A stretch of 64,000 nucleotides of DNA from the NCBI RefSeq assembly GCF_054482595.1, contig NZ_CM137008.1. One strand, written 5' to 3'. Under the pieces are notes generated by a model. That model saw nothing but the letters and a program-made list of their open reading frames with translations, ran no database searches and was not told the DNA's origin. The position numbers and the translations under genes are program-made. Shown one piece after another: positions 1 through 63,522 of the stretch (positions are counted from its first letter, which is position 1; every line of letters begins with the position of its first letter).

Positions 1-876
1 AAACCGATTTCTTCGACTTACACCTTAAAAGCGATTGAAACCGGTGAAGTGGTCTACGCTGATGGCAACGAAGTACCTTATCGTTGCTCTTTGCATCCGC
101 AATGCAAACTGGGGTCGACGCTGGTAATTCCGTTGCGTGGCGAAAATCAGCGGGTGATGGGTACCATCAAATTGTATGAAGCCAAAAACCGTTTATTCAG
201 TTCAATCAACCGCACGCTGGGCGAGGGGATTGCGCAACTGCTTTCGGCGCAGATCCTCGCCGGGCAATATGAGCGGCAAAAAGCGATGCTCACCCAGTCA
301 GAGATCAAACTGCTTCACGCCCAGGTGAACCCCCATTTTTTGTTTAATGCGCTTAACACCATTAAAGCGGTGATCCGTCGCGACAGCGAACAGGCCAGCC
401 AGCTGGTGCAGTATCTTTCCACTTTTTTCCGCAAAAACTTAAAGCGGCCTTCGGAGTTTGTTACTCTCGCCGACGAAATTGAACATGTGAACGCTTATCT
501 GCAAATTGAAAAGGCGCGCTTCCAGTCGCGGTTGCAGGTCAACATTGCTATTCCGCAAGAATTATCCCAGCAGCAATTGCCCGCGTTTACCCTGCAACCG
601 ATAGTGGAAAACGCCATTAAACATGGGACATCACAACTGCTGGATACAGGGCGAGTGGCAATCAGCGCCAGACGTGAGGGGCAACATTTAATGCTGGAGA
701 TCGAAGACAATGCCGGTTTGTATCAACCGGTAACCAATGCCAGTGGGCTGGGGATGAATCTGGTGGATAAGCGTTTACGTGAACGGTTTGGCGATGACTA
801 TGGGATAAGCGTCGCCTGTGAGCCTGATAGTTACACCCGAATAACGTTACGACTACCATGGAGGGACGAGGCATGA
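1..876 (+). CDS. btsS: Sensor histidine kinase BtsS/YehU, C-terminal part (LytS family); 5' end lies upstream of the window
   Basis: Frame 1 is open from position 1 with no stop; translation contains the LytS-type H-box [12 protein letters not shown] and a HATPase-like C-terminus; stop overlaps the start of the downstream LytTR regulator (ATGA at 873-876). Confidence 0.85.
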
Positions 877-1592
877 TTAAAGTCTTAATTGTCGATGATG
901 AACCGTTAGCACGGGAGAACCTGCGCGTATTTTTGCAGGAGCAGAGCGATATTGAAATCGTTGGAGAGTGTTCAAACGCCGTGGAAGGGATCGGCGCGGT
1001 GCATAAACTGCGCCCGGATGTGCTGTTTCTCGATATCCAGATGCCGCGCATCAGTGGTCTGGAAATGGTGGGGATGCTTGACCCGGAACATCGCCCGTAT
1101 ATCGTTTTTCTCACCGCGTTTGACGAATACGCTATTAAAGCCTTTGAAGAACATGCCTTTGATTATCTGCTGAAGCCAATTGATGAAGCGCGACTGGAGA
1201 AAACGCTGGCGCGTTTGCGTCAGGAACGCAGCAAGCAGGATGTTTCGCTGTTACCGGAAAATCAACAGGCGCTGAAATTTATCCCTTGTACGGGGCATAG
1301 TCGGATTTATTTGCTGCAAATGAAAGATGTGGCATTTGTCAGCAGTCGGATGAGCGGTGTCTACGTTACCAGCCACGAAGGGAAAGAGGGCTTTACCGAA
1401 TTGACATTACGTACCCTGGAAAGTCGTACACCACTACTGCGCTGCCATCGTCAGTATCTGGTTAACCTCGCGCATTTACAGGAGATTCGTCTGGAAGATA
1501 ACGGCCAGGCCGAGTTGATTTTGCGTAATGGCTTAACCGTGCCGGTCAGCCGCCGTTATCTGAAAAGCTTAAAAGAGGCGATTGGCCTGTAA
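873..1592 (+). CDS. btsR: LytTR-family response regulator BtsR/YehT (239 aa)
   Basis: Receiver domain start [16 protein letters not shown] and C-terminal LytTR-type DNA-binding region; ORF-track start 858 trimmed to the ATG at 873, which overlaps the upstream stop. Confidence 0.85.
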
Positions 1593-1638
1593 AAGACTGC
1601 TAAAATGGCTTTTTGCCTCATCAACACCTGAAGGCCTC

Positions 1639-2109
1639 ATGCTAAGTAACGATATTCTGCGCAGCGTGCGCTACATTTTGAAAGCCAATAACAATGACCT
1701 GGTGCGTATTCTGGCGTTGGGTAATGTCGAAGCCACCACGGAACAGATCGCCGTCTGGCTACGTAAAGAAGACGAAGAGGGTTTTCAGCGTTGTCCGGAC
1801 ATTGTTTTGTCGTCATTCCTCAATGGCCTGATTTATGAAAAACGCGGCAAGGATGAGTCTGCTCCGGCACTGGAGCCGGAACGTCGCATTAATAACAACA
1901 TCGTGCTGAAAAAATTACGCATCGCGTTTTCGCTGAAAACCGATGACATTCTGGCGATCCTCACCGAACAGCAGTTCCGCGTTTCGATGCCGGAAATTAC
2001 GGCGATGATGCGTGCACCGGATCATAAAAATTTCCGCGAATGCGGCGATCAATTTTTACGTTATTTTCTGCGTGGACTGGCAGCGCGCCAGCATGTGAAG
2101 AAAAGCTAA
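1639..2109 (+). CDS. yehS: YehS, DUF1456-family protein (156 aa)
   Basis: ORF 1582-2109 trimmed to the internal ATG at 1639 (MLSNDILRSVRYIL); length matches recalled YehS. Confidence 0.75.
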   Translation: MLSNDILRSVRYILKANNNDLVRILALGNVEATTEQIAVWLRKEDEEGFQRCPDIVLSSFLNGLIYEKRGKDESAPALEPERRINNNIVLKKLRIAFSLKTDDILAILTEQQFRVSMPEITAMMRAPDHKNFRECGDQFLRYFLRGLAARQHVKKS

Positions 2110-2118
2110 GACGGGTAT

Positions 2119-2143
2119 GGCGGCCATGCGAAACATGGCCGCC
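2119..2143. terminator. Hairpin between convergent yehS and yehR, probable bidirectional terminator
   Basis: Perfect inverted repeat ggcggccatg / catggccgcc with a 5-nt loop, flanked by A/T-rich sequence. Confidence 0.55.
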
Positions 2144-2149
2144 GACAGA

Positions 2150-2611
2150 TTATTTCACTTCTTTAAAACCAGCGGCTTTCATCACCAGTTCCATTTGCGC
2201 CATAGTGATACCTTTTTTGGCATCTTCAGCAGAAACGTTGATTCCTGAAATACCCTGCAGGGCTTTAAAATCTACTTTTTCCATATCGATAGTCACGTTT
2301 TCCTGCGCGTAGGTATCGGTATAGGTTAATTTTTCTTCAACACCCGCGATGTTTTTGTATTTGGCGCTTAACGGCTCAAGTGTCTTGGCAGCATCTTCTT
2401 TGGTGGTTGCACCAATGGAGGCAAATTGAATTTTGGTTTCAGAAGATTGCTTAAGCACCTTGTCACCTTTGTAGACATAGGTAATGGCAATTTCAGTGCC
2501 GTTCAGATTGGCGCTGAATTTCTTCGATTCTTCTTTGTCACCGCAGCCAGCAAGAGAGAAAACCAGAACAGATGCAACAACAAGGGAAAACAGCTTATTG
2601 AAAGCCTTCAT
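2150..2611 (-). CDS. yehR: YehR, predicted lipoprotein (153 aa)
   Basis: Signal peptide with lipobox LAGC (MKAFNKLFSLVVASVLVFSLAGCGDKEE); ORF trimmed to the ATG at 2611. Confidence 0.8.
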   Translation of the reverse strand: MKAFNKLFSLVVASVLVFSLAGCGDKEESKKFSANLNGTEIAITYVYKGDKVLKQSSETKIQFASIGATTKEDAAKTLEPLSAKYKNIAGVEEKLTYTDTYAQENVTIDMEKVDFKALQGISGINVSAEDAKKGITMAQMELVMKAAGFKEVK

Positions 2612-2735
2612 GTAAAACTCCATTTTATTTAATCAAGGAACTGGTGACTCTCACCAGGGGCTATATAGGATATGCCTAATACCGTGGCGTGAGCAGTCCG
2701 GAACTGGAGTAGAACTCTTAGTAAAAAGCACTATT

Positions 2736-4736
2736 TCATCCTTGTTGCTGAAGCATAGGGAATAATTGTTCGCACAGCAAAACACCGTTATTCATTGTTT
2801 CTACCCGTGCCTCGCTTTCTGTATTACGAAATTGTCCCAACACATGTGCCAGCCGATAAAAACCCACCGCGGTGAGGTCATTCGCCAGCAACTCTGCCTG
2901 ACCAATAGCACTCTGTTCCTGATAGCGCCAGCCGTTATGGAGCAGTTGAATAAGTAATGCCTGGCAGCGCATCAGCAACTGATGAGCAGTAGACGGCACA
3001 GGCAGAACGCTGGCAGAAGGTAGCGGTGCCACAGGCGCAGTTTCTGCGTCCAGCGCCCAGGCACGAGTCTTTGTCATCATTACCTGTGGTTCCAGTGTCA
3101 ATTGCCCATCAACAAAACTGACAAAGCCAGAAACCAGACACACGGGGTCGTCTGTTTGTTGCAAAAGCGCCGCCATGCGTTCAACGGCATAAGGCGCGCT
3201 GGCTGAGGCTGGCAGTGATAACGTCAGCTGATTATCTTCACCTTCGCCGCTGATTACCTGCGCATCCAGCGTTTGGCGGCTGCTATCCCAACCTAGTGAA
3301 ATACACTCAGCGACCGGCAGAATAAATAAGTTATCGACCTGATTAAGAGGCCGTATGCAGGCGGGGGGACGCTGGCGTAAATATTCCCGCAAAGCCACAA
3401 TGCCCGGCTGGCGCAACGGCGCGCTCAACATTTGCCAGGCATCTGGCGACAGTGGAACAACACTACTCAAGCGGTTACGGGTCGCGAACAGCAGTTCGCC
3501 TTCGGCACTGCGACGCGCTGCTTGTGAAACAATTTGCCCACCTGCCAGTGCGCCAGCCTGAAAACTAAACAGCCGACGTTTTGCCGCGGGAGCGTTTTCT
3601 TGTTCGCTTCTCGGCCAACTACGCGAAAGATGCAAAATACTGCCGGTGTCGGGATCGGTAAACCAGATGCGTAAACCATAATGCTCAATATCCTGCCAGC
3701 AACGCATACCTAAAGACACCAGCCGCAGATGATCAAGCTTTGCTTCTCCGGCAATGCCAGAGCCAACGACCGTGCGCCACGGCACAGGAGGAACTTCACC
3801 AACACTGTCGCGCCGGGCCATCTCTTGTGCGCAATTTAATCGACTGTTTAATGCCGCAAGCTGACGTAAGCATTCTCCGGCATGATAGTGGCTGGCGCGG
3901 GCGTGGAAGGCATCAACGCTGGCGCGCAGTTGCCGTAGCGATTCACTCACCCAGCGCCAGTTGCAGGCCTCTGCCGCCTGCAATGCGCGGTTGAAAGCGG
4001 CCTCGTAGTGAATAAGCGGCTGGCTGATGCCGCTCAGCCATAATGCCTGGCTTAGTTGTTGAACATATTGACGACACGTTTTGCCTTCTTCGCTGGCAAA
4101 CGGATCGTCAGATGATGTGACGTGTTCGCTGCGCATCTGCCAGATTAAATGAGTAAATTCCGCTTGCTGAGTTTTTGCCTGGACAAAGGCCTGTACTGCC
4201 AGTACGACATGTTCGCAAAGTGTGCCTTCAATACAATCACAACGGGCGAAACGAATGCTGCTACGGGAATAAAAACGCACATCGCTCATCGGTAAGCGGG
4301 CAGAGGGAATTTCGCCCGGCGTACAGAACAACTCAATGGTGATGCCTTTAGCGACCAGCGCCTGTGCGCGTTTGCGGGTGGTATCGGGCAGGGTAGCCAG
4401 TTCTTCCAGCCAGATTGCCGGATCCCACTCTTCTTCTTTTTCCGTGGGCTGGACGGTGGCACAAAGTCGTTGATAACTTAACACCAGCATCACGCGATGA
4501 CGGCACATGCCGCTGGCCCCGCAGCTGCACTGAGCCTCTTTCAGTGCCTGGCTGTTCGCCAGCTGGGTACGGACACCGTCACTGAAGGTGGCGATTAAAG
4601 CGCCGTTCTCATGGCTGATCTCCGGGACGTTGCCATTTTCCAGTTCCTTAAGACTGCGCTTAACAAAACCGGCATTGCTTAACGCTGTCAGGGCCTGCGG
4701 TGTCAGTTCTAATAATTCCGGACGTAGTGAATTCAT
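2736..4736 (-). CDS. yehQ: YehQ, SWIM zinc-finger protein (666 aa)
   Basis: Two CxC...CxH motifs (CSCGASGMCRHRVMLVL and CDCIEGTLCEHVVLAV); start ATG at 4734-4736 overlaps the yehP stop (ATGA). Confidence 0.8.
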   Translation of the reverse strand: MNSLRPELLELTPQALTALSNAGFVKRSLKELENGNVPEISHENGALIATFSDGVRTQLANSQALKEAQCSCGASGMCRHRVMLVLSYQRLCATVQPTEKEEEWDPAIWLEELATLPDTTRKRAQALVAKGITIELFCTPGEIPSARLPMSDVRFYSRSSIRFARCDCIEGTLCEHVVLAVQAFVQAKTQQAEFTHLIWQMRSEHVTSSDDPFASEEGKTCRQYVQQLSQALWLSGISQPLIHYEAAFNRALQAAEACNWRWVSESLRQLRASVDAFHARASHYHAGECLRQLAALNSRLNCAQEMARRDSVGEVPPVPWRTVVGSGIAGEAKLDHLRLVSLGMRCWQDIEHYGLRIWFTDPDTGSILHLSRSWPRSEQENAPAAKRRLFSFQAGALAGGQIVSQAARRSAEGELLFATRNRLSSVVPLSPDAWQMLSAPLRQPGIVALREYLRQRPPACIRPLNQVDNLFILPVAECISLGWDSSRQTLDAQVISGEGEDNQLTLSLPASASAPYAVERMAALLQQTDDPVCLVSGFVSFVDGQLTLEPQVMMTKTRAWALDAETAPVAPLPSASVLPVPSTAHQLLMRCQALLIQLLHNGWRYQEQSAIGQAELLANDLTAVGFYRLAHVLGQFRNTESEARVETMNNGVLLCEQLFPMLQQQG

Positions 4737-5869
4737 GACTGAAGATTCTCCGCAAGCCATGATGCCAGCTCGCCCGGTGTCATGGCGGCTATTTGTGCGC
4801 CGACATTTACCAGCACCTGGGCCGTATCGTGGTCATAGCAAGGTGTTGCGGTGCTATCGAGCGCCGCCAGTCCCAGCACTTTGATGCCGCTCTGGACACA
4901 CTTTTTCACCTGATGCGTCAGTAATGATGATGAACCCCCTTCGTAAAAATCGCTCACGAGGATAATGACGCTTTTCGCTGGTTGTTCAATAAGTTGCCGA
5001 CCATATTCCACGGCACTGGCGATATTGGTTCCGCCGCCTAATTGCACTTTCATTAATAACTCTACCGGATCGGCAACGTCTGCCGTGAGATCAACCACGC
5101 TGGTGTCAAACGCCACCAGATGGGTACGAATGCCGGGTAACTGCCATAAACAGGCCGCCATCACCGCAGAGTGGATCACCGAATCGACCATCGAGCCGCT
5201 TTGATCAACCAGTAAGACCAGTTGCCATTGTTCGCTTTGGCGTTTAATGCGGCTGTTAAAGCGGGGGGATTCGATATACAACTTGCCGTGTTGCGGGTGC
5301 CAGTGTTGCAGGTTGGCGCGCAGAGTACTTTTGAAATCAAAGTTTCGCGCCAGTGGAATAAATGAGCGGCGACGGCGATCGCGGACACCAGAAAAAGCCT
5401 GACGAACTTCCTTTGCCAGTCGAGCCATAATTTCTTCAACAACCTGGCGCACTATCCGGCGGGCGGCAGCCAGTACTTCGGGATTCATCAGATGTTTGGT
5501 GTGCAAAACGGCGCGTAGCAGGCTTTCAGAAGGCTGCATACGTTCCAGCACGTCGAGATTCGTCACCACATCTTCAATGCCATAGCGCAGTACGGCATCG
5601 CTTTCCAGCCGCTCAATCACCTGTTGCGGAAACAGCGTGTGAATACTGTTGATCCACTCAGGGGGGGTGAGATTTGAGCCACCTAATCCACCGGAGCGTT
5701 CACCACGCTGGAGCCGTTCAGGATCGCGCCCATACAGCCACTCCAGCGCGTGGTCTATCTGCCGGGCGTTGTCATCCAGCCCACAAAGCGTCGTTTCTGC
5801 CGCTTCGCCAAGAATTAATCGCCAGCGTTGTAGCTCACGGGTGGTCAGAAGATCGTTCAGTTCAGACAT
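4733..5869 (-). CDS. yehP: YehP, von Willebrand factor A (vWA) domain protein (378 aa)
   Basis: MIDAS-type motif LLVDQSGSM followed by ...GGGTNIASAV... and ...ILVSDFYEGG; start ATG 5867-5869 lies inside the yehM 3' end (8-nt overlap). Confidence 0.8.
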   Translation of the reverse strand: MSELNDLLTTRELQRWRLILGEAAETTLCGLDDNARQIDHALEWLYGRDPERLQRGERSGGLGGSNLTPPEWINSIHTLFPQQVIERLESDAVLRYGIEDVVTNLDVLERMQPSESLLRAVLHTKHLMNPEVLAAARRIVRQVVEEIMARLAKEVRQAFSGVRDRRRRSFIPLARNFDFKSTLRANLQHWHPQHGKLYIESPRFNSRIKRQSEQWQLVLLVDQSGSMVDSVIHSAVMAACLWQLPGIRTHLVAFDTSVVDLTADVADPVELLMKVQLGGGTNIASAVEYGRQLIEQPAKSVIILVSDFYEGGSSSLLTHQVKKCVQSGIKVLGLAALDSTATPCYDHDTAQVLVNVGAQIAAMTPGELASWLAENLQS

Positions 5870-8141
5870 GGAAAACTCCCCAGTTTTGCAGCGATGCCAG
5901 TGCCTGCTGTTCGAGTTGTTGATGATGTGCAATGGCTTGTGGTGGACAATGCAACGGCATTTGCAGCGCCGAAACGGGAAGTTGCGCCAGTTGATAATGC
6001 TCAAGCACCTGATGCGCCAGCGTCCCGCGTTCTCGTGGTGGTAGCCAGGCCATCGCCGCGCGTAAATCGGGCAGGGCATTGATAAAATTGGCATCACTCA
6101 GTTGATTTAAATGACTGCTGAAACCGGCGATAAATGCCGGCTGACAGGCCAGTTGATGACGGGCTAATGCCAGCAAACCGTGCAGCGCTTCGCCGGATTG
6201 TGCCGGGGATAACTGCGCCAGCATCGTCAGCGCCGCTTCGGCACTGGCGTTGGGATGTTCCAGACGCATCAGTGCGCCAAGAGCCGCGCCGCGATCCAGC
6301 GCCGGGGCATGGATTGCCTGACTGCGTCGCTCCAGTAAGGCTACCGCCGCAGAAAGAGAAATGCCGGGGAGCTGCACACCGCTATGCAGATCGCGCAGGA
6401 TATGACACAACGCTTGCCAGCTATGCAGGTGAGCGTGAAACTCCTTTTCATCCGGTCTGCCGTTGGATTCACACAGCCACAGCGTGCGATCGATAGCCGC
6501 GCATAACGTCGTTTGTAATATCTGCGCGCCTTGCATACCGCTAATTTCATCCAGCCGCCATAAGGCATATAGCACTTCCAGCGCCTGGCCCATTTCGGCA
6601 AATTGATTTTCCTGGGCTATTAATAATGTGAGTTGTTCCAGTAATTGTTGACTGAAGGACGCCAGACCCGCTAACGCTGCCTGGCTAAGACATGTGGTGA
6701 TACTGCCGATTCCACCCGCGTCCAGCATATCGGCTTCTAATTTATGGCGTGCGGCTTCCTGGAGTGTGGCACCAAAGCAGGCGGCCTCAATCAATGCCGC
6801 ATGCTGGCTAAGCGGGCGGGTTAATTTCCAGCGTTCTTCACCGTTGCCTGCAAGTGTCAGTGTGCTTCCCTGCTGGCGTACAATCCCTGGGATCTCCAGT
6901 ATTGCCAGCCGATGTAACACCTGACTTTGCGCTAGTCCATTGGGGTTAAAGCGATTTAAGGTAAGCTCCGCCGGAAGAGAGATTGCGGTACGTTCCAGTT
7001 CGCAGGTGACATCTTTTGGCAGAGGCGGTTGTGGCGTAGAAGGGGCAAGTTTACCGAATCCGTCACCCGCTAATGTGTCTATCAACGTTAGCAGAATCGG
7101 ATCGGTGTCGGGATGAATAACTCCGCGATAGCTCCACGGCAACGGCGCGTTCAGGGCTTCTTTAATCAGCGAGCCTGCTATGGCATCCAGCCAGTCAGTG
7201 CGTAACGGTAGTTTATGTCCGCGCAACTGTGCCAGCGCCATCGCATGCAGATGAGCGGCAGCCATATCCGCGGTCGAAGCAGGCAAGTGGTGTTGGCGCA
7301 AACGGGTAAGAACCGTTTTTAGCAGTTGTTCTCCCGCCTGCTGTAAGCCCCACTGCCAGCACCAGCTTTGCCAGACCGGGGCAGGCATTCCTGAAAGGTA
7401 TCCTGCCAGCACATCAAGGCGCTTTTCACTGTAGGGTGTGAGATAACAACCTGTAACGGCATCTGCCAGCGAGGGCAATTCTGGCTTGTTAATGTCCTGC
7501 GGGCATTCGCGCCACATTTTTGCCAGTGCCGGAGCGTGCCAGCCACCGCAGACGACTAACACGTCGCCATTATTTTGCTGCACCGCCCATGCAATCCAGC
7601 GAGCCATAAAGGCTTCGCGCTGACGATTGAGTGCATCGCCGGGGAAATCGCCCCGCAGTTGGGCAAAATAGTGCGCCAGTGCAGAGGGTAATGCAGTTTG
7701 CTGGCTTTCATCTTCGAACAAGTGATCCCACAGGGTATCGCTGTTATCCATGCGGGTGGCACGCAGCAGCAAGGTCTGGCTTTCCTCTTGCGTATCAGGC
7801 GAATCGTCCTCTTCTTCACTCTGTGCCCAGCAAGGCAAATCGATGAAGTAAGTTTGTGCCTGAATACGACGAGCGGCTTGTAGCGCCTGCCACTCCGGCG
7901 AAAATTCAGCAAATGGCGTCCAGGCACCACGCCCGGGGGCTGCACCGTCCTGATACTGGCAATAACTGTAAATAGCTACCGGAAGCTGGTGGGCTAAAAA
8001 CAGTTCGTCTACCCGGTCATTAAAATCAGCCGGGCCTTCAATCAACACGTATCGTGGCCGCTGGCTTTCGATTAACGATTTCACCAGCCGGGCGCAGGCC
8101 GGACTATGATGCCGGATGCCGACAATTAACGGCTCGCTCAT
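5862..8141 (-). CDS. yehM: YehM, large uncharacterized protein (759 aa)
   Basis: Long ORF trimmed to MSEPLIVGIRHH (ATG at 8139-8141), 10 nt downstream of the yehL stop; no motif I can assign with confidence. Confidence 0.75.
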   Translation of the reverse strand: MSEPLIVGIRHHSPACARLVKSLIESQRPRYVLIEGPADFNDRVDELFLAHQLPVAIYSYCQYQDGAAPGRGAWTPFAEFSPEWQALQAARRIQAQTYFIDLPCWAQSEEEDDSPDTQEESQTLLLRATRMDNSDTLWDHLFEDESQQTALPSALAHYFAQLRGDFPGDALNRQREAFMARWIAWAVQQNNGDVLVVCGGWHAPALAKMWRECPQDINKPELPSLADAVTGCYLTPYSEKRLDVLAGYLSGMPAPVWQSWCWQWGLQQAGEQLLKTVLTRLRQHHLPASTADMAAAHLHAMALAQLRGHKLPLRTDWLDAIAGSLIKEALNAPLPWSYRGVIHPDTDPILLTLIDTLAGDGFGKLAPSTPQPPLPKDVTCELERTAISLPAELTLNRFNPNGLAQSQVLHRLAILEIPGIVRQQGSTLTLAGNGEERWKLTRPLSQHAALIEAACFGATLQEAARHKLEADMLDAGGIGSITTCLSQAALAGLASFSQQLLEQLTLLIAQENQFAEMGQALEVLYALWRLDEISGMQGAQILQTTLCAAIDRTLWLCESNGRPDEKEFHAHLHSWQALCHILRDLHSGVQLPGISLSAAVALLERRSQAIHAPALDRGAALGALMRLEHPNASAEAALTMLAQLSPAQSGEALHGLLALARHQLACQPAFIAGFSSHLNQLSDANFINALPDLRAAMAWLPPRERGTLAHQVLEHYQLAQLPVSALQMPLHCPPQAIAHHQQLEQQALASLQNWGVFHV

Positions 8142-8151
8142 GCATCTTTCC

Positions 8152-9240
8152 TCACGGCAGGCGGTGGCGGGCTTGATAATAAGCCTGCCAGTGAGCTTCT
8201 TTATGTGTGGCGACACGCTGTTCGAAGTAACGGCGCAGACGAGCGCGATCTTCTTCGTTATCTTTGACGATGGTTCCGGCAATGCAGTCCACCAGATCGG
8301 CTGGCTCACCTGCGCGATTCGCTAAAAACCAGGCGCGGACGCCCACGGCGTGGGCCACGTTCACGGCTTCAGCGGTGGACATAATCGCTGTTAGTGTATC
8401 CATTGACGTTTTCTTTTCGCCGTTGGCACGCAGATCGCGGAAGGTGCGGACCAGTAACTCCAGTACCGCGTCAGGCACTTTATGCGGAATACCGCTATGG
8501 GCCAGCAAACGCGCCGAAGCACTGGCGACAAGCTCCAGCTCCTGGGCGAAATCCATAATCGGAAAGACAGTTTCAAAATCGAAGCGACGCTTTAGCGCAG
8601 CACTCATTTCATTGACGCCGCGATCGCGGGTATTGGCAGTGGCAATAATATTAAAGCCTTCTCGCGCATAGAGCTGACTGGCTTCACCAGTGAGTTCCGG
8701 CACCGTCATCACCCTGTCAGAAAGCATACCTAACAGACAGTCTTGCACTTCCAGCGGTGTACGCGTTATCTCTTCAAAACGGACGATTTTGCCGTCGCGC
8801 ATTCCCTGGTAAAGCGGGGCAGGGACCAGCGCTTCCGTTGATGGACCATGATTGATAAGCAGGGCGTAGTTCCAGCCGTACTTGATTTGATCTTCGGTAG
8901 TAGATGCGCCGCCCTGGATGGTTAACCCGGCATCGCCGCTAATAGCGGTTACCAGTAATTCAGACAGGAGAGATTTTGCGGTGCCAGGTTCCCCCACCAA
9001 CATCAAACCGCGTCCGGTGGCAAGAGTGACTAACATACGTTCGACAGCGGAGGGACTAATCACCACTTTACGGCTAATATTTTGCGCGCTATCGCCAAGG
9101 ATAAAAGCACGGGCCGCAGGCAAACTTAACTGCCAACCGGGCGGGCAAGGTGCGTTATCATTTTGTTTTAATTTTGCCAGTTCATCGGCGTATAACACAG
9201 CAGCAGGCGGACGCTGCAGATGATTATTCTGCGGTGACAT
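8152..9240 (-). CDS. yehL: YehL, MoxR-family AAA+ ATPase (362 aa)
   Basis: Walker A GEPGTAKS and AAA+ core; ORF trimmed to MSPQNNHLQRPPA (ATG at 9238-9240). Confidence 0.85.
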   Translation of the reverse strand: MSPQNNHLQRPPAAVLYADELAKLKQNDNAPCPPGWQLSLPAARAFILGDSAQNISRKVVISPSAVERMLVTLATGRGLMLVGEPGTAKSLLSELLVTAISGDAGLTIQGGASTTEDQIKYGWNYALLINHGPSTEALVPAPLYQGMRDGKIVRFEEITRTPLEVQDCLLGMLSDRVMTVPELTGEASQLYAREGFNIIATANTRDRGVNEMSAALKRRFDFETVFPIMDFAQELELVASASARLLAHSGIPHKVPDAVLELLVRTFRDLRANGEKKTSMDTLTAIMSTAEAVNVAHAVGVRAWFLANRAGEPADLVDCIAGTIVKDNEEDRARLRRYFEQRVATHKEAHWQAYYQARHRLP

Positions 9241-9349
9241 ATATTCATCCCTGAAATGTATTAATGAAATAAACGATATTTTACGCGCAATAAATGTTTG
9301 GCTCATTAGTTGTTTGAGCGAAAAATATCTGGAAAGCAGATCACAGTAA

Positions 9350-9388
9350 ATAAAAAAACCTGCTGGTGAGGCAGGTTCTTTTATTTAC
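9350..9388. terminator. Bidirectional intrinsic-terminator-like hairpin, unit A; candidate 3' end of an antisense sRNA
   Basis: aaaaaaa-cctgc-tggtgag-gcagg-ttcttttattt: GC stem flanked by an A-run on one side and a T-run on the other. Confidence 0.5.
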
Positions 9389-9672
9389 TATTTTCAGGCC
9401 TAACACCACAGCCTGTGCAACATCGTGTTCCAACGAACGAATTATAACCACGGCTGGACCCCGTTGCAATTAAGATAATGAGATTTATAATCCAGACCGT
9501 TGGGACGTTGCGCCGGATCGAACCTATTTCAAGTCCTGGCTACCGGACGGGTGGTGCTTCAGGTGGTGCCCTGAGCCGGAGTGCAACATCGTGGTCCAAC
9601 ATACGTAAACCAGTATTGACAGGCAGTGTAAGGGTAAGGTGCTGGTGTTGCGCTCCTTAATAAGGAGAGCGG

Positions 9673-9959: not shown

Positions 9960-9998
9960 ATAAAAAAACCTGCTGGTGAGGCAGGTTCTTTTATTTAC
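9960..9998. terminator. Bidirectional intrinsic-terminator-like hairpin, unit B
   Basis: Same sequence as 9350-9388. Confidence 0.5.
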
Positions 9999-10280
9999 TA
10001 CAGTGACGCTAACTTGCTGATTGTGCAACATTTCGTACCAACGAATAAATTATAACCATATCCACACTCCATTGCAATTCAGTGAGTGAGATTTATAATC
10101 CTGCCCGTTGGGAGGTTGTGCCGGATCGGACCAATTTTAAGTCCTGGCTGCCGGACGGGTGGTGCCGCAGGCGGTGCCCTGATCCGGAGAGCAACGTTTC
10201 GTACCAACATACGTAAACCAGTATCGACAGGCAGTGTAAGGGTAAGGTGCTGGTGTTGCGCTCCTTAATAAGGAGAGCGG

Positions 10281-22212: not shown

Positions 22213-24246
22213 TTATTTCACCTGATGACCCGGTTTAGCACCGGCATCCGGGCTTAGCAGGAAAATATCTTTCCCGCCAGGACCGGCAGCCATCACCATG
22301 CCTTCAGAGATACCGAAGCGCATTTTACGTGGTGCCAAGTTAGCCACCATAATGGTGTGACGACCAATCAGTGCCTGCGGATCCGGGTAAGCAGAACGAA
22401 TGCCGGAGAAGACATTGCGTTTTTCACCGCCGAGATCCAGCGTCAGGCGCAGCAGTTTGTCAGAACCTTCAACAAACTCTGCGTTTTCAATCAGCGCCAC
22501 GCGCAGGTCAACTTTAGCGAAGTCGTCAAAGGTGATGGTTTCCTGAATCGGATCATCTGCCAGTGGGCCAGTAACTGGCGCGGCAGCTGCTTTCACTTCT
22601 TCTTTAGACGCTTCCACCAGTGCTTCAACCTGCTTCATATCGATGCGGTTATACAGCGCTTTGAACGGATTCACTTTGTGGCCCAGCAGCGGTTGCTGGA
22701 TACCATCCCAGGTCAGTTCCGTATTTAGGAATGCTTCTGCGCGCTCGGTCAGTTTCGGCAGTACCGGCTTCAGGTAAGTCATCAGCACGCGGAACAGGTT
22801 TATGCCCATCGAGCAAATTGCCTGCAGGTCAGCATCGCGGCCTTCCTGTTTCGCCACCACCCACGGAGCCTGTTCATCGACATAGCGGTTAGCCAGATCA
22901 GCCAGCGCCATAATTTCGCGCACTGCTTTACCAAATTCGCGGCTTTCCCACGCTTCACCAATCACTTCAGCGGCATCAGTGAAGGTTTTGTACAACTGCG
23001 GGTCAGCCAGTTCGCTTGCCAGCACGCCGTCAAAACGCTTATTAATAAAGCCTGCGTTGCGGGAGGCCAGGTTAACCACTTTGTTCACGATATCGGCATT
23101 CACACGCTGAACGAAATCTTCCAGGTTGAGATCGATATCATCAATGCGCGAAGAGAGTTTCGCAGTGTAGTAGTAACGCAGGCTGTCGGCGTCAAAATGA
23201 TTCAGCCAGGTGCTGGCTTTAATAAAGGTGCCGCGAGACTTGGACATCTTCGCACCGTTCACTGTCACATAGCCGTGAACAAACAAGTTGGTCGGCTTGC
23301 GGAAGTTGCTGCCTTCCAGCATTGCAGGCCAGAACAGGCTGTGGAAGTAAACAATATCTTTACCGATGAAGTGGTACAGCTCGGCGGTGGAGTCTTTCTT
23401 CCAGTATTCATCGAAGCTTACGCTGTCGCCGCGCTTATCGCACAGATTCTTGAAAGAACCCATGTAGCCAATCGGTGCGTCCAGCCAGACGTAGAAATAT
23501 TTGCCCGGCGCGTTCGGAATTTCAAAACCGAAGTACGGTGCGTCGCGGGAGATATCCCACTGTTGCAGGCCAGATTCAAACCACTCCTGCATTTTGTTTG
23601 CCACCTGCTCCTGCAACGCACCGCTGCGGGTCCATGCCTGCAACATTTCGCTGAAAGAGGGCAGATCAAAGAAGAAGTGTTCAGAATCACGCATTACCGG
23701 GGTAGCGCCAGAAACCACCGATTTCGGCTCGATCAGTTCAGTCGGGCTGTAGGTCGCGCCGCAGACTTCGCAGTTATCGCCGTATTGATCCGGGGATTTA
23801 CATTTCGGGCAGGTGCCTTTCACAAAACGGTCCGGCAGGAACATGCCTTTTTCCGGATCGTACAGCTGAGAGATGGTGCGGTTTTTAATAAAACCGTTTT
23901 CTTTCAAGCGAGTATAGATAAGCTCAGACAACTGGCGGTTCTCTTCGCTGTGCGTCGAGTGATAGTTGTCATAGCTGATGTTAAAGCCTGCGAAATCAGT
24001 CTGATGCTCCTGACTCATTTCGCCAATCATCTGCTCCGGGGTGATACCAAGCTGCTGAGCTTTCAGCATGATCGGTGTACCGTGGGCATCGTCGGCGCAG
24101 ATGAAGTTGACCTCGTGGCCGCGCATTCGCTGGTAACGGACCCAGACATCAGCCTGGATGTGCTCCAGCATATGGCCGAGGTGGATTGAGCCGTTAGCGT
24201 ACGGCAGTGCGCACGTCACCAGAATTTTCTTCGCGACTTGAGTCAT
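22213..24246 (-). CDS. metG: Methionine--tRNA ligase (677 aa)
   Basis: [29 protein letters not shown] (HIGH-type motif), KMSKS present; ORF trimmed to the ATG at 24244-24246. Confidence 0.95.
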
Positions 24247-31802: not shown

Positions 31803-32627
31803 TTATCGCATTATGCCCATGAATCCATGTACGCCCATATACACACCAACTAAGCCAATCAACAGACTGGAAAAATAGGGGGCGCGTTTAGCGAGAGTGT
31901 TAAATCCGCTCCAGCGTTTTGCGACCTGCTGAACGCTGATTGCTGCGCCAACGCCTACGGTGACAAGCGTTAACGCCAGGCCAATGCTGAAACTGACGAC
32001 CAGTGTTGCGCCCAGTGTCTGGGCTTTCAACTGAATGCATATCAACAGCACGGTAATTGCTGCAGGGCAGGGGATAAGGCCACCGGTTAAGCCAAATAAC
32101 AAAATTTGCCAGTTGGTGACCTCTCTACCATCAAAGCGTCGTTTAATGTCATTGGCATGGGCTCGTGCATGGGCATCCTGATACTCGCCATGTTCGTGAT
32201 GGTGATGATGTCCTTGGTCGTGGTGATCTTCGTGATCGTGGTGATGATGCTCATGATCATGCTCGTGCATATTCTCCAGCCAGTTGCGTTCGCCGCGCCA
32301 GGTACGCCAGAACATCCAGAACGCGGTGCTAATAATGATCACTGCGGAAATCAGCTGGAGCCACGGTTCTGCTGATTGAGCAGTAAAGCGCTTACTGATC
32401 ACCATCCCGCCAAAGGCAATCAACCAGACCACCGCGGTATGCGAAATGGTTGCTGCCAGTCCGAGCATCACCGCCTGTTTAATGGTGCCTTTGATGGCGA
32501 TGATAAACGCCGCCATCATCGTTTTTGAGTGCCCTGGTTCCAGGCCATGAAGCGCACCAAGTAAGATGGCGCTGGGGATGAAGAACCAGGCGTTTCCTTG
32601 CTGAAGAAGAGTTGTAAATTCGGTCAT
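31803..32627 (-). CDS. rcnA: Nickel/cobalt efflux transporter RcnA (274 aa)
   Basis: Six-TM-like protein with a His-rich loop HEHDHEHHHHDHEDHHDQGHHHHHEHGE. Confidence 0.9.
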   Translation of the reverse strand: MTEFTTLLQQGNAWFFIPSAILLGALHGLEPGHSKTMMAAFIIAIKGTIKQAVMLGLAATISHTAVVWLIAFGGMVISKRFTAQSAEPWLQLISAVIIISTAFWMFWRTWRGERNWLENMHEHDHEHHHHDHEDHHDQGHHHHHEHGEYQDAHARAHANDIKRRFDGREVTNWQILLFGLTGGLIPCPAAITVLLICIQLKAQTLGATLVVSFSIGLALTLVTVGVGAAISVQQVAKRWSGFNTLAKRAPYFSSLLIGLVGVYMGVHGFMGIMR

Positions 32628-33104: not shown

Positions 33105-33240
33105 TCATCGCAACCAAACGACTCGGGGTGCCCTTCTTTGTGAAGGCTGAGAAATACCCGTATCACCTGATCTGGATAATGCCAGCGTAGGGAAGTCACG
33201 GACCACCAGGTCATTGCTTCTTCACGTTATGGCAGGAGCA
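33105..33240 (+). ncRNA. TPP riboswitch (THI element) in the thiM leader
   Basis: Contains ctcggggtgcccttctttgtgaaggctgagaaatacccgtatcacctgatctggataatgccagcgtagggaa, matching the recalled thiM THI-box aptamer; the platform reaches the SD ggcaggagc. Confidence 0.85.
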
Positions 33241-46799: not shown

Positions 46800-47579
46800 A
46801 TGACGATGAATTCATTCGAGCGAAGGAATAAGATCATCCAATTAGTGAATGAACAGGGAACCGTGCTTGTTCAGGATCTGGCGGGAGTATTTGCTGCCTC
46901 GGAAGCGACAATCCGTGCCGATTTGCGCTTTCTCGAACAAAAAGGCGTGGTTACGCGCTTTCATGGCGGTGCGGCGAAAATAATGTCCGGTAATAGTGAA
47001 ACCGAGACCCAGGAAGTCGGGTTTAAAGAGCGATTTCAGCTCGCCAGCGCGCCAAAAAACAGAATAGCGCAGGCGGCAGTCAAAATGATCCATGAAGGGA
47101 TGACCGTTATTCTCGACAGCGGAAGTACCACAATGCTTATCGCCGAAGGATTAATGACCGCTAAAAATATCACGGTGATTACCAACAGTCTCCCGGCAGC
47201 GTTTGCCCTTTCCGAAAATAAAGACATTACTCTGGTCGTCTGTGGTGGCACGGTCCGCCATAAAACGCGCTCGATGCATGGTTCCATTGCCGAGCGTTCA
47301 TTGCAGGATATTAATGCCGATTTAATGTTTGTCGGTGCTGATGGTATTGATGCGGTTAATGGTATTACGACCTTTAATGAGGGTTATTCCGTTAGCGGTG
47401 CGATGGTCACAGCCGCTAATAAAGTGATTGCCGTTCTCGATTCATCGAAATTTAACCGTCGCGGTTTTAATCAGGTACTGCCAATCGAAAAAATTGACAT
47501 TATTATTACCGATGATGCTGTATCAGAGGTGGATAAACTGGCATTGCAGAAGACACGGGTGAAATTAATTACGGTGTAG
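46800..47579 (+). CDS. gatR: DeoR-family repressor GatR, uninterrupted (259 aa; alternative start at 46806)
   Basis: N-terminal HTH (RRNKIIQLVNEQGTVLVQDLAGVFAASEATIRADLRFLEQKG) and a DeoR-type C-terminal domain; a single continuous ORF. Confidence 0.85.
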   Translation: MTMNSFERRNKIIQLVNEQGTVLVQDLAGVFAASEATIRADLRFLEQKGVVTRFHGGAAKIMSGNSETETQEVGFKERFQLASAPKNRIAQAAVKMIHEGMTVILDSGSTTMLIAEGLMTAKNITVITNSLPAAFALSENKDITLVVCGGTVRHKTRSMHGSIAERSLQDINADLMFVGADGIDAVNGITTFNEGYSVSGAMVTAANKVIAVLDSSKFNRRGFNQVLPIEKIDIIITDDAVSEVDKLALQKTRVKLITV

Positions 47580-47660: not shown

Positions 47661-48560
47661 TTAACGCAATAATGGACAATCTGGTGGTAATCGACAACGC
47701 AACGCCGCCGGAAGTATTTCAATATGAAAGTTTTGTCCGCTCAACGGTTCGCCATCAAGATTAAAAGTGATTTCGTGTGGGGCTTGTATATCAAACCACG
47801 ACGAAGCGCCTTCGATAATATTCGGGTTATCTTCGTCAGATTTTAAGGTTGATACGAGAGCCGGAAGAATTTCATCGCCGGTAAAAATGCGCAGTTGCAG
47901 CAAGCCATCGTTAATTAACGCGTTCGGACACAATTGCTGACCGCCACCGGCCTGACGCCCGTTACCAATACCAATGACCAGGGCGTCACCTTGCCAGTGA
48001 AAGTTTTCACCGCGGATTTCACAACGGTCCGGTTGCAGAGTATCCATGCGCATTAAGCCATGAATGATGTAAGAGACGCCACCCAGCGCGGCTTTTAATT
48101 TTTCCGGCGTTTCTGTGGTAATACGCGTCCCAAATCCGCCTGTCGCCATATTAATAAAACAGGTTTGTTTGTTGACCTGCGCCATATCTATCGCAATGGC
48201 GTTACCGGCAATTGCCAGTTTCAGCGCCTTATCCAGTGCCTCAGGAATCCCTACACTGGTGGCAAAATCATTGGCGGTTCCTAATGGCAAAATTCCCAGC
48301 GCGGGTATGTCATCCCCCTCACACTGAATCAACGCCGTAGAAACTTCATTAATGGTGCCATCGCCACCACCGGCAATCACCGTTGCGACGCCCAACTTCC
48401 GGGCCTCCTCTACATATCGTGCGGCATCGCCTTTCTCCCAGGTGACCCGCACATGGATCGTCATTCCTTCCTCACGCAACAGCATAATTGCTTCGCGCAA
48501 GGGTAGATTGTCAGTACTTTTGCCATTAAGAATCAGTAAGCTGGCGGGAAATTCTGCCAT
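47661..48560 (-). CDS. yegS: Lipid kinase YegS (DAGK_cat family, 299 aa)
   Basis: Diacylglycerol-kinase catalytic-domain glycine-rich motifs (GGDGT). Confidence 0.9.
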
Positions 48561-48974
48561 GATCGTATGTGCCTTTATGATTGGTCTGTAGATAGTGTAG
48601 AGCAGAAAACAAAAGGTGGAGTCAGAACAGGATGAAAGTCGGAGGATAAAAAGTCAGTTCAAGTATGGAGGATTCAGTGGTTACCACCAGGAGCTTGCAA
48701 TGGGGACAGCGAATACTAACGGCTGCCACCGATAAATTTCAAAAAAGAGCATATGCCTAATATTCAACCAAACAGTGGCATCTTAAATATACTATTCCAA
48801 ATATATTAAAGCCCCCATGGAGTTACCCTGAAGGGCCTCAATGTCCGTAATTCCTACTTATGTAGGAAATGTTGTACAGAACATTTATTATAATCCTATT
48901 CAATTATAATAATCATGCCATTATTATATTTAAACACTAGAGAGTGTCGTTGGTATTTAATGGGGGAAGGTGAG

Positions 48975-49292
48975 ATGAAAAAGATAGCTGCTATATCATT
49001 AATTAGTATTTTTATTATGTCTGGTTGTGCTGTGCATAATGATGAGACAAGTATCGGTAAATTTGGTCTTGCATATAAAAGTAATATTCAGCGTAAACTC
49101 GATAACCAATACTACACCGAAGCCGAAGCTTCTTTAGCCAGGGGCAGAATATCTGGTGCAGAAAATATAGTAAAAAATGATGCAGCCCATTTCTGTGTTA
49201 CTCAGGGCAAAAAAATGCAGATAGTTGACCTGAAGACAGAAGGTGCAGGATTACATGGCGTCGCTCGTCTGACATTCAAATGTGGAGAGTGA
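48975..49292 (+). CDS. yegR: YegR, small predicted lipoprotein (105 aa)
   Basis: ORF trimmed to MKKIAAISLISIFIMSGCAV (lipobox); RBS ggaagg; lies in an AT-rich context. Confidence 0.7.
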   Translation: MKKIAAISLISIFIMSGCAVHNDETSIGKFGLAYKSNIQRKLDNQYYTEAEASLARGRISGAENIVKNDAAHFCVTQGKKMQIVDLKTEGAGLHGVARLTFKCGE

Positions 49293-49450
49293 GAATATTT
49301 TTTGGTAAGCGTCAAACATGCGCGTTCTGGTTGTGCTTAGCCGGAACCTGTGCGAGCACGATGCCGTTACGTGAAAGGCATCGTGCTATGAAGGGAGATT
49401 CTATCGATGTGGTCAATGGAAGACGGTGACCAGGGATAGGGCTTATGCAT

Positions 49451-49537
49451 AAAAAATAAGCCCGTGTAAGGGAGATTACACAGGCTAAGGAGGTGGTTCC
49501 TGGTACAGCTAGCATTTTATGGGTTATGTTTTTCAGC
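49451..49537 (-). ncRNA. cyaR: CyaR (RyeE) small regulatory RNA
   Basis: Minus strand reads GCTGAAAAACATAACCCATAAAATGCTAGCTGTACCAGGAACCACCTCCTTAGCCTGTGTAATCTCCCTTACACGGGCTTATTTTTT, matching recalled CyaR including its terminator. Confidence 0.85.
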
Positions 49538-49621
49538 GAAACGGATGATAACCTTAATAAATGCAGCTGTATGTGATCGGTTTCTAAGAATTTTCCATCC
49601 GGGAAAAATAATCGAAATTAA

Positions 49622-50983
49622 TCACTTACCGTGGGGATTACGCGTGGTTTCCCCGGAGAAATTACGCATCAGCAGCGCGTAATTGAGCTCAAGATCCTGC
49701 GGGACCGGGAGCCACACAGTATAACCATCGCCTGGTGCTATCGGCATAGCTTCGCCTTTGGCGTTTTCCATGTGCTCAAGGGTAAAATTAATGTTGCCTT
49801 GCGGCGTCATCAGCTCAAGGCTGTCGCCAACGGAGAATTTATTTTTCACCGCTACCGCCGCGAGGTCCCCCTTGCGCTCACCGGTAAACTCACCAACAAA
49901 CTGCTGGCGGTCAGAAACTGAATAACCGTATTCGTAGTTCTGATAATCGTCGTGAGTATGACGACGCAGGAAACCTTCGGTATAGCCACGATGCGCCAGA
50001 CCTTCCAGAGTTTCCAGCAGGCTGGTATCGAACGGTTTTCCCGCAGCGGCGTCATCGATAGCTTTGCGGTAAACCTGTGCGGTGCGTGCACAATAGTAGA
50101 AAGATTTGGTACGACCTTCGATTTTCAGCGAATGCACGCCCATTTTGGTCAGGCGTTCTACATGGGCGATGGCGCGCAGATCTTTCGAGTTCATGATGTA
50201 AGTGCCGTGCTCATCTTCAAACGCGGTCATATACTCGCCCGGACGCTGGGCCTCTTCGATCATAAACACTTTGTCGGTTGGTGCGCCGATACCCAGCGTC
50301 GGCTCAACATTTTGCACCGGAATCGGCTCGTACTTGTGTACGATGTTGCCAACGTCATCTTCTTTCCCTTCCTGGACGTTGTACTCCCAGCGGCAGGCGT
50401 TGGTGCAGGTACCCTGGTTCGGATCGCGCTTGTTGATATAGCCAGAGAGCAGGCAGCGACCGGAGTAGGCCATGCACAGCGCACCGTGAACGAAGATCTC
50501 GATCTCCATATCCGGCACCTGATTGCGGATCTCTTCAATCTCTTCCAGCGACAGCTCGCGAGAGAGGATCACGCGGGTCAGGCCCATTTGCTGCCAGAAT
50601 TTCACCGTCGCCCAGTTTACGGCGTTAGCCTGCACCGAGAGGTGGATCGGCATTTCAGGGAAGTGCTCACGCACCAGCATAATCAGCCCTGGATCGGACA
50701 TAATCAGCGCATCCGGCCCCATTTCCACCACCGGTTTCAGGTCACGGATAAAGGTTTTCAGCTTGGCGTTGTGCGGTGCAATGTTGACCACGACATAAAA
50801 CTTTTTCCCCAGCGCGTGGGCTTCATTGATGCCGAGCTGAAGATTTTCGTGGTTGAATTCGTTGTTGCGCACACGCAGGGAGTAACGCGGCTGGCCCGCA
50901 TAAACAGCATCTGCGCCATAAGCGAAAGCGTAACGCATATTTTTCAGCGTTCCCGCCGGGGAAAGGAGTTCCGGTTTAAACAT
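49622..50983 (-). CDS. yegQ: Peptidase U32-family protein YegQ (453 aa)
   Basis: Full-length ORF with U32-family Cys-rich region. Confidence 0.9.
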   Translation of the reverse strand: MFKPELLSPAGTLKNMRYAFAYGADAVYAGQPRYSLRVRNNEFNHENLQLGINEAHALGKKFYVVVNIAPHNAKLKTFIRDLKPVVEMGPDALIMSDPGLIMLVREHFPEMPIHLSVQANAVNWATVKFWQQMGLTRVILSRELSLEEIEEIRNQVPDMEIEIFVHGALCMAYSGRCLLSGYINKRDPNQGTCTNACRWEYNVQEGKEDDVGNIVHKYEPIPVQNVEPTLGIGAPTDKVFMIEEAQRPGEYMTAFEDEHGTYIMNSKDLRAIAHVERLTKMGVHSLKIEGRTKSFYYCARTAQVYRKAIDDAAAGKPFDTSLLETLEGLAHRGYTEGFLRRHTHDDYQNYEYGYSVSDRQQFVGEFTGERKGDLAAVAVKNKFSVGDSLELMTPQGNINFTLEHMENAKGEAMPIAPGDGYTVWLPVPQDLELNYALLMRNFSGETTRNPHGK

Positions 50984-62854: not shown

Positions 62855-63000
62855 CGGGACGCTGAAACGGGAAAGCCCCTCCCGAGGAAGGGGCCATAAA
62901 TAAGGAAAGGGTCATGATGAAGTGGATCATCATCGTGGTGCTCTTAGTCATAAGCTTCCCGGCTTACTAAGACTACCAGGGCGGGGGAAACCCCGCTCTA
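62855..63000 (-). ncRNA. Candidate Sib antisense antitoxin sRNA, copy 1 (boundaries approximate)
   Basis: Inferred from the ibs/sib architecture, in which the antisense sRNA fully overlaps the ibs ORF; hairpin elements at both ends of the unit. Confidence 0.4.
62914..62970 (+). CDS. Ibs-family hydrophobic toxin peptide (18 aa, MMKWIIIVVLLVISFPAY)
   Basis: ATGATG start, wholly hydrophobic peptide ending in AY, RBS aggaaaggg; location between mdtA and yegL matches the recalled K-12 ibsA/ibsB-sibA/sibB locus. Confidence 0.65.
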   Translation: MMKWIIIVVLLVISFPAY

Positions 63001-63179
63001 CCCTCACTCCTGAAAGTATGCCTTCACGATAAGATTGTCAATCCGCAGGCTTTGCAGTCTGCGATCCTGCCAGCAAATATTCTTTGCGAGTCGTTACGCA
63101 ATAATCACAGAGGAAACTATTTTGTTCACGCGTTAGCGATAGACTGTATTCAGGGCGAAAGGAGGTAAGCCGACGATTT

Positions 63180-63330
63180 CAGCGGGATGCTGAAACGGGA
63201 AAGCCCCTCCCGGAGAAGAGGGCTTTTAATAAGGAAAGGGTTATGATGAAGCACGTCATCATACTGGTGATACTCTTAGTGATTAGCTTCCAGGCTTACT
63301 AAGAACACCAGGGGGAGGGGGAAACCTCTC
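63180..63330 (-). ncRNA. Candidate Sib antisense antitoxin sRNA, copy 2 (boundaries approximate)
   Basis: As copy 1; minus-strand hairpin gccctcttctccgggaggggc followed by a T-rich run just beyond the ibs start. Confidence 0.4.
63243..63302 (+). CDS. ibsA: Ibs-family hydrophobic toxin peptide (19 aa, MMKHVIILVILLVISFQAY)
   Basis: Near-identical to recalled IbsA (MMKHVIILVILLVISFPAY); A versus B assignment uncertain. Confidence 0.65.
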   Translation: MMKHVIILVILLVISFQAY

Positions 63331-63522
63331 CCTAACCCTCACTCCTGAAATTATGTCACTCCGCCCTTAGTGTCAATCGACGGCTCTCCGTTCTTGCGAG
63401 GCGAATAGCAAAATTTTCTGCGCCGCCGGGCCTAATTCTGAAAGTTTCTTCGTTTGCTCTTATTTCATTATTGCAGTCGGTATGATACCGGACCTCGATA
63501 ATTCTCTAAGAAAGGATTTCTT

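Follow-up and report, generated by a model that had tools for sequence, protein, structure and literature searches.

Organization of the yegR-cyaR region

The DNA analysed here (the window, 64 kb in length) is part of the E. coli chromosome. The 801 bp around the feature under study show 100% identity to several RefSeq genomes, and a BLAST search with this segment returned matches in 5423 of the 5426 complete E. coli genomes. The region comprises yegR, a short spacer and the intact gene for the small RNA CyaR, with yegS and trhP as the surrounding genes (Table 1). No phage genes are present between yegR and cyaR in the window.

A preliminary description of the window had placed an intact CyaR on the minus strand about 160 bp from yegR. 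Both statements agree with our analysis, as mapping of the K-12 annotation reproduced the proposed range exactly and the measured spacer is 158 bp long. The Rfam family RF00112 matches the minus strand at 49454-49539 with 100.7 bits (gathering score 47) and is covered over model positions 1-85 of 85. The cyaR terminator consists of an 11-pair stem (49486-49459) followed by the U-run TATTTTTTAT, which qualifies it as an intrinsic terminator, and was the only one reported by the terminator scan.

Close to the 3' end of cyaR, the sequence GGGCTTAT (49439-49446) is the reverse complement of ATAAGCCC (49456-49463), which lies inside the attachment core described below. On the cyaR strand, the 3' stem of the terminator could thus alternatively pair with sequence past the U-run (49439-49463). 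This pairing potential is missing from the virgin sites of sister lineages.

Elsewhere in the window, the open reading frame matching gatR (46800-47579) is uninterrupted and encodes 259 aa, whereas gatR of K-12 is split by IS3E. Further Rfam matches above the gathering score correspond to two OrzO-P antitoxin RNAs, a TPP riboswitch and two Sib RNAs (9352-9427, 9962-10035, 33114-33210, 62899-63041 and 63228-63376), all of them ordinary for this chromosomal region. An 11-bp inverted repeat at 9345 overlaps the first OrzO-P copy.

Table 1. Coordinates of the features at the yegR-cyaR locus (window positions)
Feature	Position	Strand	Size, basis or comment
yegS	47661..48560	-	Ancestral neighbour of the cyaR core; context
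Inserted block (putative fossil attL, yegR, hairpins, putative fossil P arm)	48642..49450	.	~809 bp; global alignment to outgroups
Degenerate core copy, read as a fossil attL core	48648..48674	+	18/27 identical to the core
yegR	48975..49292	+	105 aa
Spacer between yegR and cyaR	49293-49450		158 bp
Hairpin A	49324..49347	+	10 pairs, 4-nt loop, three G-U pairs; fold
Hairpin B	49355..49387	+	Perfect 11-bp inverted repeat, 11-nt loop; arms 49355-49365 and 49377-49387
Putative fossil P arm of a P2-like attP	49404..49450	+	Alignment to the P2 Int arm-site region
attB core of P2-family phages, unoccupied	49451..49477	+	Last 27 nt of cyaR
cyaR (CyaR/RyeE sRNA), intact	49451..49537	-	K-12 b4438 annotation (87 nt) mapped through pairwise alignment
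trhP (yegQ)	49622..50983	-	Upstream of cyaR; context

The attachment core and its occupancy

P2 integrates by means of a tyrosine integrase together with IHF, Cox serving in excision, and the attB sites of tyrosine-integrase systems are simple core sites. The site at cyaR is presumably locI, the classical preferred P2 site of E. coli C.

The attB core used by P2-family phages (AAAAAATAAGCCCGTGTAAGGGAGATT) spans the loop of the cyaR terminator, the 3' half of its stem and the U-tract (the terminator hairpin occupies 49459-49486). It is identical in 27 of 27 positions to the annotated attP core of P2 (AF063097, 24356-24382) and represents the only match in the window with three or fewer mismatches, 0 being expected. 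The preliminary description had implied that the spacer or its hairpin defines the att core, and had considered the site useful for defining it. The core is instead found inside cyaR, 63 bp away from that hairpin. The P2 attB at the 3' end of cyaR is a textbook locus, and its core needs no fresh definition because it is annotated in the P2 GenBank record and cyaR is already a listed insertion site. The genome paper of E. coli W names the cyaR RNA as a P2-type prophage insertion site, which holds Wphi2 in strain W, ogr-D' in K-12 and P2*B in strain B and is empty in Crooks; cyaR and rybB are both given there as P2-type insertion sites (PMC3032704).

Lysogens define the same boundaries, with BLAST breakpoints at 49451 and 49477. 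On the yegR side, their host sequence continues up to ...GGGAGATT and is followed by the P' arm of P2 and int, giving the order yegR, spacer, core, int at attL and ogr, P arm, core, cyaR at attR. In the prophage record of vB_EcoM-720R8, which includes host flank, the core is found at positions 1-27 and at ~31977-32003, about 32 kb apart. The core is therefore duplicated in lysogens as a direct repeat at both prophage ends.

A continuous, unoccupied junction like that of the window is the majority state in E. coli, being present in 4207 of the 5426 complete genomes (~78%). The K-12-type junction with D' and half a core was found in 358 of the 5426, and in ~860 of them the site is split by a larger insert, which was a P2-like prophage in the examples inspected. 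Relative to K-12, the window thus carries an unoccupied P2-family attachment site, as the preliminary description had proposed. This holds only in a relative sense, since the flank of the site, meaning the spacer together with yegR, is very probably itself the scar of an older P2-like element.

On the basis of established P2 biology, a P2-type tyrosine integrase would recombine the identical 27-bp attP core with positions 49451-49477 and leave the prophage between two core copies, with int by the yegR side and ogr by cyaR. As the core is identical in phage and host, integration would restore the cyaR terminator: the incoming phage core would rebuild it and keep the small RNA gene intact.

The same cyaR site is also used by another lineage of integrases, which shares 84% identity with P2 Int (L054 7380-7560; also L041, L047, L066 and L099). 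Here, host identity ends after 22 nt of the core (...GTGTAAGGG|CGTTT...), which implies that at least two att/Int specificities share the cyaR target. In the IMG/VR contig 2565956724_000008 (47,980 bp; L075 and L076), the yegR-side spacer is present near both ends in inverted orientation, probably as an assembly artefact or as an inverted duplication around a prophage.

Stem-loops in the spacer

The 11-bp perfect inverted repeat noticed in the preliminary description (agcacgatgcc and ggcatcgtgct) forms hairpin B. Perfect inverted repeats of at least 11 bp with a loop of 3-30 nt occurred in only 54 of 100,000 shuffles of the spacer, and three loci of this kind exist in the 64-kb window. The predicted fold has an energy of -20.8 to -24.6 kcal/mol and z values of about -4.7 to -5.1 on either strand. 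Hairpin B is located on the coding strand of yegR, 62 nt downstream of its stop codon, and occupies the place of the P2 ogr/late-operon (F-operon) terminator, just upstream of the P arm.

The upstream hairpin A contains three G-U pairs and is hence restricted to plus-strand RNA, where it belongs to the 3' UTR of yegR. In K-12, it has a C-G pair where the window has U-G. The larger part of the spacer (49293-49440, plus strand) folds with -56.2 kcal/mol and a z value of -4.64.

Several assignments of hairpin B were considered and discarded. Neither strand carries a U-tract after it, and it was rejected as a Rho-independent terminator because its stem lacks a T-run on either strand. It is not a REP/BIME element or another dispersed repeat, being single-copy: the 801-bp query containing hairpin B matched a median of one place per genome, and the extra matches are explained by the duplication of the core in lysogens. 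A relaxed Rfam search of positions 48560-49620 produced nothing credible except CyaR, which argues against a known RNA family. Among sequenced phages, hairpin B was matched only in records that include host flank.

Sequence variation in hairpin B was analysed in 97 prophage-flank contigs, which were picked by the neighbouring P-arm fossil. An earlier sample picked by the hairpin pattern itself is biased and was excluded from the analysis of stem variation. In the 97 contigs, the stems of hairpin B show six substitutions, three of which give G-U pairs on the plus strand and three of which break pairs, with no compensatory changes; the loop varies at four positions.

These data bear on the suggestion that hairpin B, with or without hairpin A, is a selected functional element at the 3' end of the yegR mRNA, such as an atypical terminator or an exonuclease stabiliser. 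The location of hairpin B 62 nt past the yegR stop on the coding strand, the plus-strand-only pairing of hairpin A with its three G-U pairs, the three stem substitutions out of six that yield G-U on this strand, and the z value of -4.6 for the whole spacer are all consistent with selection on the transcript. However, hairpin B lacks a U-tract, compensatory double changes are absent while three substitutions break pairs, and variability in the stems is not clearly lower than in the loop. We consider such a function possible but doubtful, and it would be compatible with the explanation of the locus favoured below. Hairpin B is probably a relic stem-loop that has come to lie in the yegR 3' UTR, where it may today simply be a stable structure within the untranslated region; it might also contribute to forming or stabilising the 3' end.

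Immediately past the yegR stop codon, some strains contain a 170-bp AT-rich indel located between positions 49299 and 49300 (L005 690-875; L002). It is found in 948 of the 5426 complete E. coli genomes and carries an annotated hypothetical ORF of 41 aa in one record. Its interpretation as a phage fragment was rejected, as it has no phage similarity.

Insertion of yegR and the spacer next to cyaR

The ancestral state of the locus was examined using an outgroup scan with one genome per species, in which an exact match to the cyaR terminator region was required and 15 loci were recovered. E. fergusonii and E. marmotae were missed by this exact-match scan, so that the insertion can be dated only coarsely. 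E. whittamii, Escherichia sp. E1V33 and E69 (~90% identical, a divergent lineage that carries the label E. coli) have ~90 bp between the cyaR core and the start of yegS. In Enterobacter sp. EA-1, Kosakonia and Silvania, yegS likewise adjoins the cyaR core. Neither yegR nor P-arm-like sequence is present at these three Escherichia sites or at the three sites from other genera. Since yegS adjoins the core without yegR in both sister lineages and other genera, yegR and the spacer represent an insertion.

The boundary of the inserted block on the cyaR side coincides exactly with the core, and its left edge was derived from the alignments to E69, E1V33 and E. whittamii. The block has a GC content of 0.31-0.37 compared to ~0.52 in the flanks. 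At the left boundary, defined independently by the outgroup alignments, lies a second core-like sequence. An identity of 18/27 with the core is reached by 3 of the ~128,000 positions and strands in the window, the true core included. This copy is followed by a weakly P'-like stretch (48675 to ~48705). Core and P' together show ~69% identity over 58 nt, a weak similarity whose score was reached by 14 of 2000 shuffles, and in a whole-window scan the P' similarity at the left edge is at background level. A tblastn search of the block with P2 proteins revealed no coding remnants of Int, Ogr or D (no match better than E = 0.5), and the left part of the block was matched in sequenced phages only by records with host flank.

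These features suggest that a block composed of a fossil attL, yegR and the spacer entered the E. coli lineage by an insertion exactly at the core, and that this block is a scar left by an older P2-like prophage, in which everything between the arms would have been lost or replaced. Alternatively, the yegR block could be ancestral to Escherichia and have been lost from E. whittamii, E1V33 and E69, for example through Int-mediated excision between core-like repeats. The block is indeed bounded by the core and a core-like sequence, and excision by a resident P2-type Int is conceivable. This scenario is improbable given that yegS adjoins the cyaR core in Enterobacter sp. EA-1, Kosakonia and Silvania as well and that the block has a low GC content; even if it were true, the block would count as a mobile scar of the phage type.

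Outside Escherichia, the sequence adjoining the core differs again in Kluyvera ascorbata ATCC 33433 (L019) and in Mangrovibacter (L012, L014 and L024); in Kluyvera, an ORF ends ~20 bp from the cyaR core. The 3' end of cyaR may be a recurrent insertion point beyond this genus.

The yegR gene

The only gene of the inserted block, yegR, has a low GC content and encodes a predicted lipoprotein (Pfam PF27694). Almost all YegR homologues are found in E. coli and Shigella, and the few distant ones (47-66% identity) are located in unrelated, non-phage chromosomal contexts. In tblastn searches, yegR was present in sequenced phages only as host flank. The phage protein family PHROG 21109 matches yegR, and we suspect that it was built from host flanks. 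We regard yegR as unproven phage cargo: its phage matches are host flanks and its homologues are non-phage, so that it is the position of the gene that suggests a cargo origin. No papers linking yegR to a prophage origin were found in the literature searched.

Origin of the core-proximal spacer

The 47 bp of the spacer next to the core are homologous to the P arm of the P2 attachment site. The sequence TCGATGTGGTCAATG (49404-49418) matches the P2 P arm in 15 of 15 positions and GTGACCAG (49426-49433) in 8 of 8. Both matches occur in the same order as in P2 and at a distance from the core similar to that of the annotated Int arm-binding site of P2. The local alignment of the spacer to the P2 P arm has a score of 38, which was reached by none of 2000 shuffles, and the spacer is the best P-arm match anywhere in the 64-kb window. 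Compared to P2, one Int arm repeat is kept and the second is degenerate, and the IHF region contains a 16-bp deletion. Strain 47538 has a variant of the spacer with 12 more bp, which align with the IHF region of P2. The spacer lies outside attB, and its core-proximal part appears to be a decayed P2-type P arm.

The similarity between spacer and P arm is real, and a pairwise match by itself gives no direction. It could also have arisen if the spacer were original bacterial DNA, from which P2-family phages took their P arm (for instance, by aberrant excision), in which case the window would carry a true virgin attB. We regard this direction as very improbable. The sister Escherichia lineages and three other genera possess the core without such a flank; the phage copy is complete, with two arm-type repeats and the IHF region as annotated protein-binding sites, whereas in the host copy one repeat is degenerate and 16 bp are deleted; and the same arm repeats recur in the P' arm of the phage. 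The idea that hairpin B is a working part of the attachment site, as an accessory protein-binding or structural element defining or enhancing attB, is hardly credible. Although the repeat is not a chance feature and is separated from the core by 63 bp, the virgin sites of sister lineages have the core but no hairpin B, and the related lineage L011 has different sequence in its place. Moreover, the crossover junctions of lysogens lie at the core, and the attB sites of tyrosine-integrase systems are simple core sites. Accordingly, we rejected hairpin B as a part of the att core or attB.

Additional sequence features were observed around the putative P arm. The right end of the core (10 nt, aagggagatt; 49468-49477) is repeated at 49391-49400, just past hairpin B and 76 bp upstream of the core, with a chance expectation estimated at ~0.003. 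Spacers of the K-12 type have aaggaggatt in place of aagggagatt, as at the right end of the degenerate core at the left edge. One weak BLAST match (E = 0.9), between the spacer and the right end of the phage 186 genome, was taken as chance.

In L011 (E. coli SCPM-O-B-8794, ~94% identical), the 242 nt to the left of the core have the upstream stem-loop and ...CCTGTGCGA in common with the window. They continue with unrelated sequence and with a different, better-preserved P2-like P arm that replaces hairpin B and the fossil arm. This arrangement points to one more layer of integration and deletion that arose independently.

The K-12 remnant and successive integration events

The K-12 remnant is reportedly a subject of a 1992 study by Barreiro and Haggard-Ljungquist, together with the P2 attachment sites. 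The annotation of NC_000913 gives the order cyaR, ogrK, yegZ (a pseudogene, D') and yegR, with the cryptic prophage PR-X at 2167183-2167811, and so agrees with the preliminary description, which had placed ogrK and yegZ between cyaR and yegR in K-12. The yegZ pseudogene corresponds to the 3' part of P2 gene D, and the PR-X feature starts 18 nt inside cyaR. The pairwise alignment to K-12 that the preliminary description had called for reveals an insertion relative to the window, with ~630 extra bp comprising ogrK and the truncated gene D, and the core shared with the remnant junctions is present as well. In P2, the segment aligned with this extra DNA starts at position 23741 (within gene D), includes ogr with its terminator as well as the P arm, and stops where the attP core ends.

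K-12 has kept the whole spacer, hairpin B included, with a few substitutions, which places the remnant in the 3' end of cyaR and outside the spacer. At the yegR-side junction of K-12, the core is cut back to its first 18 nt (AAAAAA(A)TAAGCCCGTGTA), which are fused to gene D. The ogrK/D' segment would be a second, younger layer, derived from a later integration at the same core and a subsequent deletion that reached from position 18 of the attL core into gene D.

Another truncated remnant was observed in the IMG/VR contig 2734482778_000014 (L082 ~430-5400), where 18 nt of the core are fused to genes for a tail fibre and a tail-fibre-assembly protein, followed by an ORF of 794 aa resembling an ATPase. 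PR-X of K-12 and the L082 element are two independent remnants with an identical core breakpoint after GTGTA. The shared breakpoint gives a hint that these prophages are whittled down through aberrant recombination, catalysed by Int at its cleavage site.

Taken as a whole, the locus is best explained as an empty P2-type attB flanked by an older P2-like scar, with the K-12 remnant as a second layer, and we hold this explanation with high confidence. The identity of the core, the occupancy states, the homology to the P arm and the indel against the outgroups are shown by the data, and the order of events is inferred, as are the recombination mechanism, a phage origin of yegR and a present role for hairpin B. 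A more specific reading treats the empty E. coli site as a miniature prophage skeleton, in which a degenerate attL core, a P'-like stretch, yegR, the stem-loops, a decayed P arm and the intact core follow one another. In this arrangement, an ancient P2-like phage would have delivered or trapped yegR, an orphan gene for a lipoprotein, as its position suggests, and K-12 would display three nested generations of events at one core. We favour these proposals as jointly likely to be both correct and unpublished, with less assurance than the general explanation. The literature searched, to which the key P2 papers of 1992 and 2004 did not belong, contained no statement of the skeleton reading.

As first noted, the finding re-identifies a textbook locus and is ordinary. 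The interpretation of the flank as a scar is a modest addition, in which the E. coli flank would be the fossil of an earlier integration, and it would explain the origin of the orphan gene yegR. The presence of a cdt toxin island at the same site in E. albertii points to a recurrent cargo entry point across Escherichia. Caution is advisable when the spacer is used as a clean attB, for att engineering or for calling prophage boundaries, as it carries a partial Int arm site. Prophage predictors routinely include the spacer and yegR in their predictions, as seen in ~100 IMG/VR contigs.

Comparison with known systems

The site resembles the attB/attP system of P2 with its Int, IHF and Cox proteins in having the identical 27-bp core and the same orientation, with int towards yegR and ogr towards cyaR. 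The core is doubled at attL and attR in lysogens, and the PR-X remnant of K-12 aligns to D'-ogr-P arm-core of P2. The site of the window, in contrast, is empty, and its yegR-side flank would be a decayed P arm and not neutral host DNA. The attL of a lysogen formed at this site would consequently resemble a crippled attP consisting of a fossil P arm, the core and P'.

The integration target belongs with other small RNA genes used at their 3' ends, such as tRNA genes, ssrA (tmRNA) and rybB. In all of them the core covers the 3' end of a gene for a structured RNA, the phage copy restores this end and the gene survives, and no difference of substance separates cyaR from the others. Hairpin B is comparable to the P2 ogr/F-operon terminator, as both have a GC-rich stem in the same orientation just upstream of the P arm, and their distances from the core are similar (63 bp in the window and 67 bp in P2). 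Unlike the P2 terminator, hairpin B has no U-tract, and the two share no sequence similarity.

A cleaner parallel is found in the type strain of E. albertii, NBRC 107761 (L010 ~4938-8340), where cdtA, cdtB and cdtC are located between yegS and cyaR. Starting from the same boundary by yegS, this locus contains the core and P' arm, ~3.4 kb with cdtABC, the P arm and the cyaR core, and both its attL (core and P') and its attR (P and core) are well preserved. With the cdt block of E. albertii, a P2-like phage has left behind a toxin island at this very site. P2-like phages with cdt-V among their genes are said to have been described by Svab et al. in 2013. Like the window, the E. albertii remnant has cargo placed between attL and attR. 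The two differ in that the cargo of E. albertii is a toxin operon, whereas the sole cargo gene in E. coli is yegR, for which a phage link is not demonstrable, and in that the E. coli arms are far more decayed. The comparison nevertheless supports the reading of the E. coli block as probably the same kind of object in an older and more eroded state.
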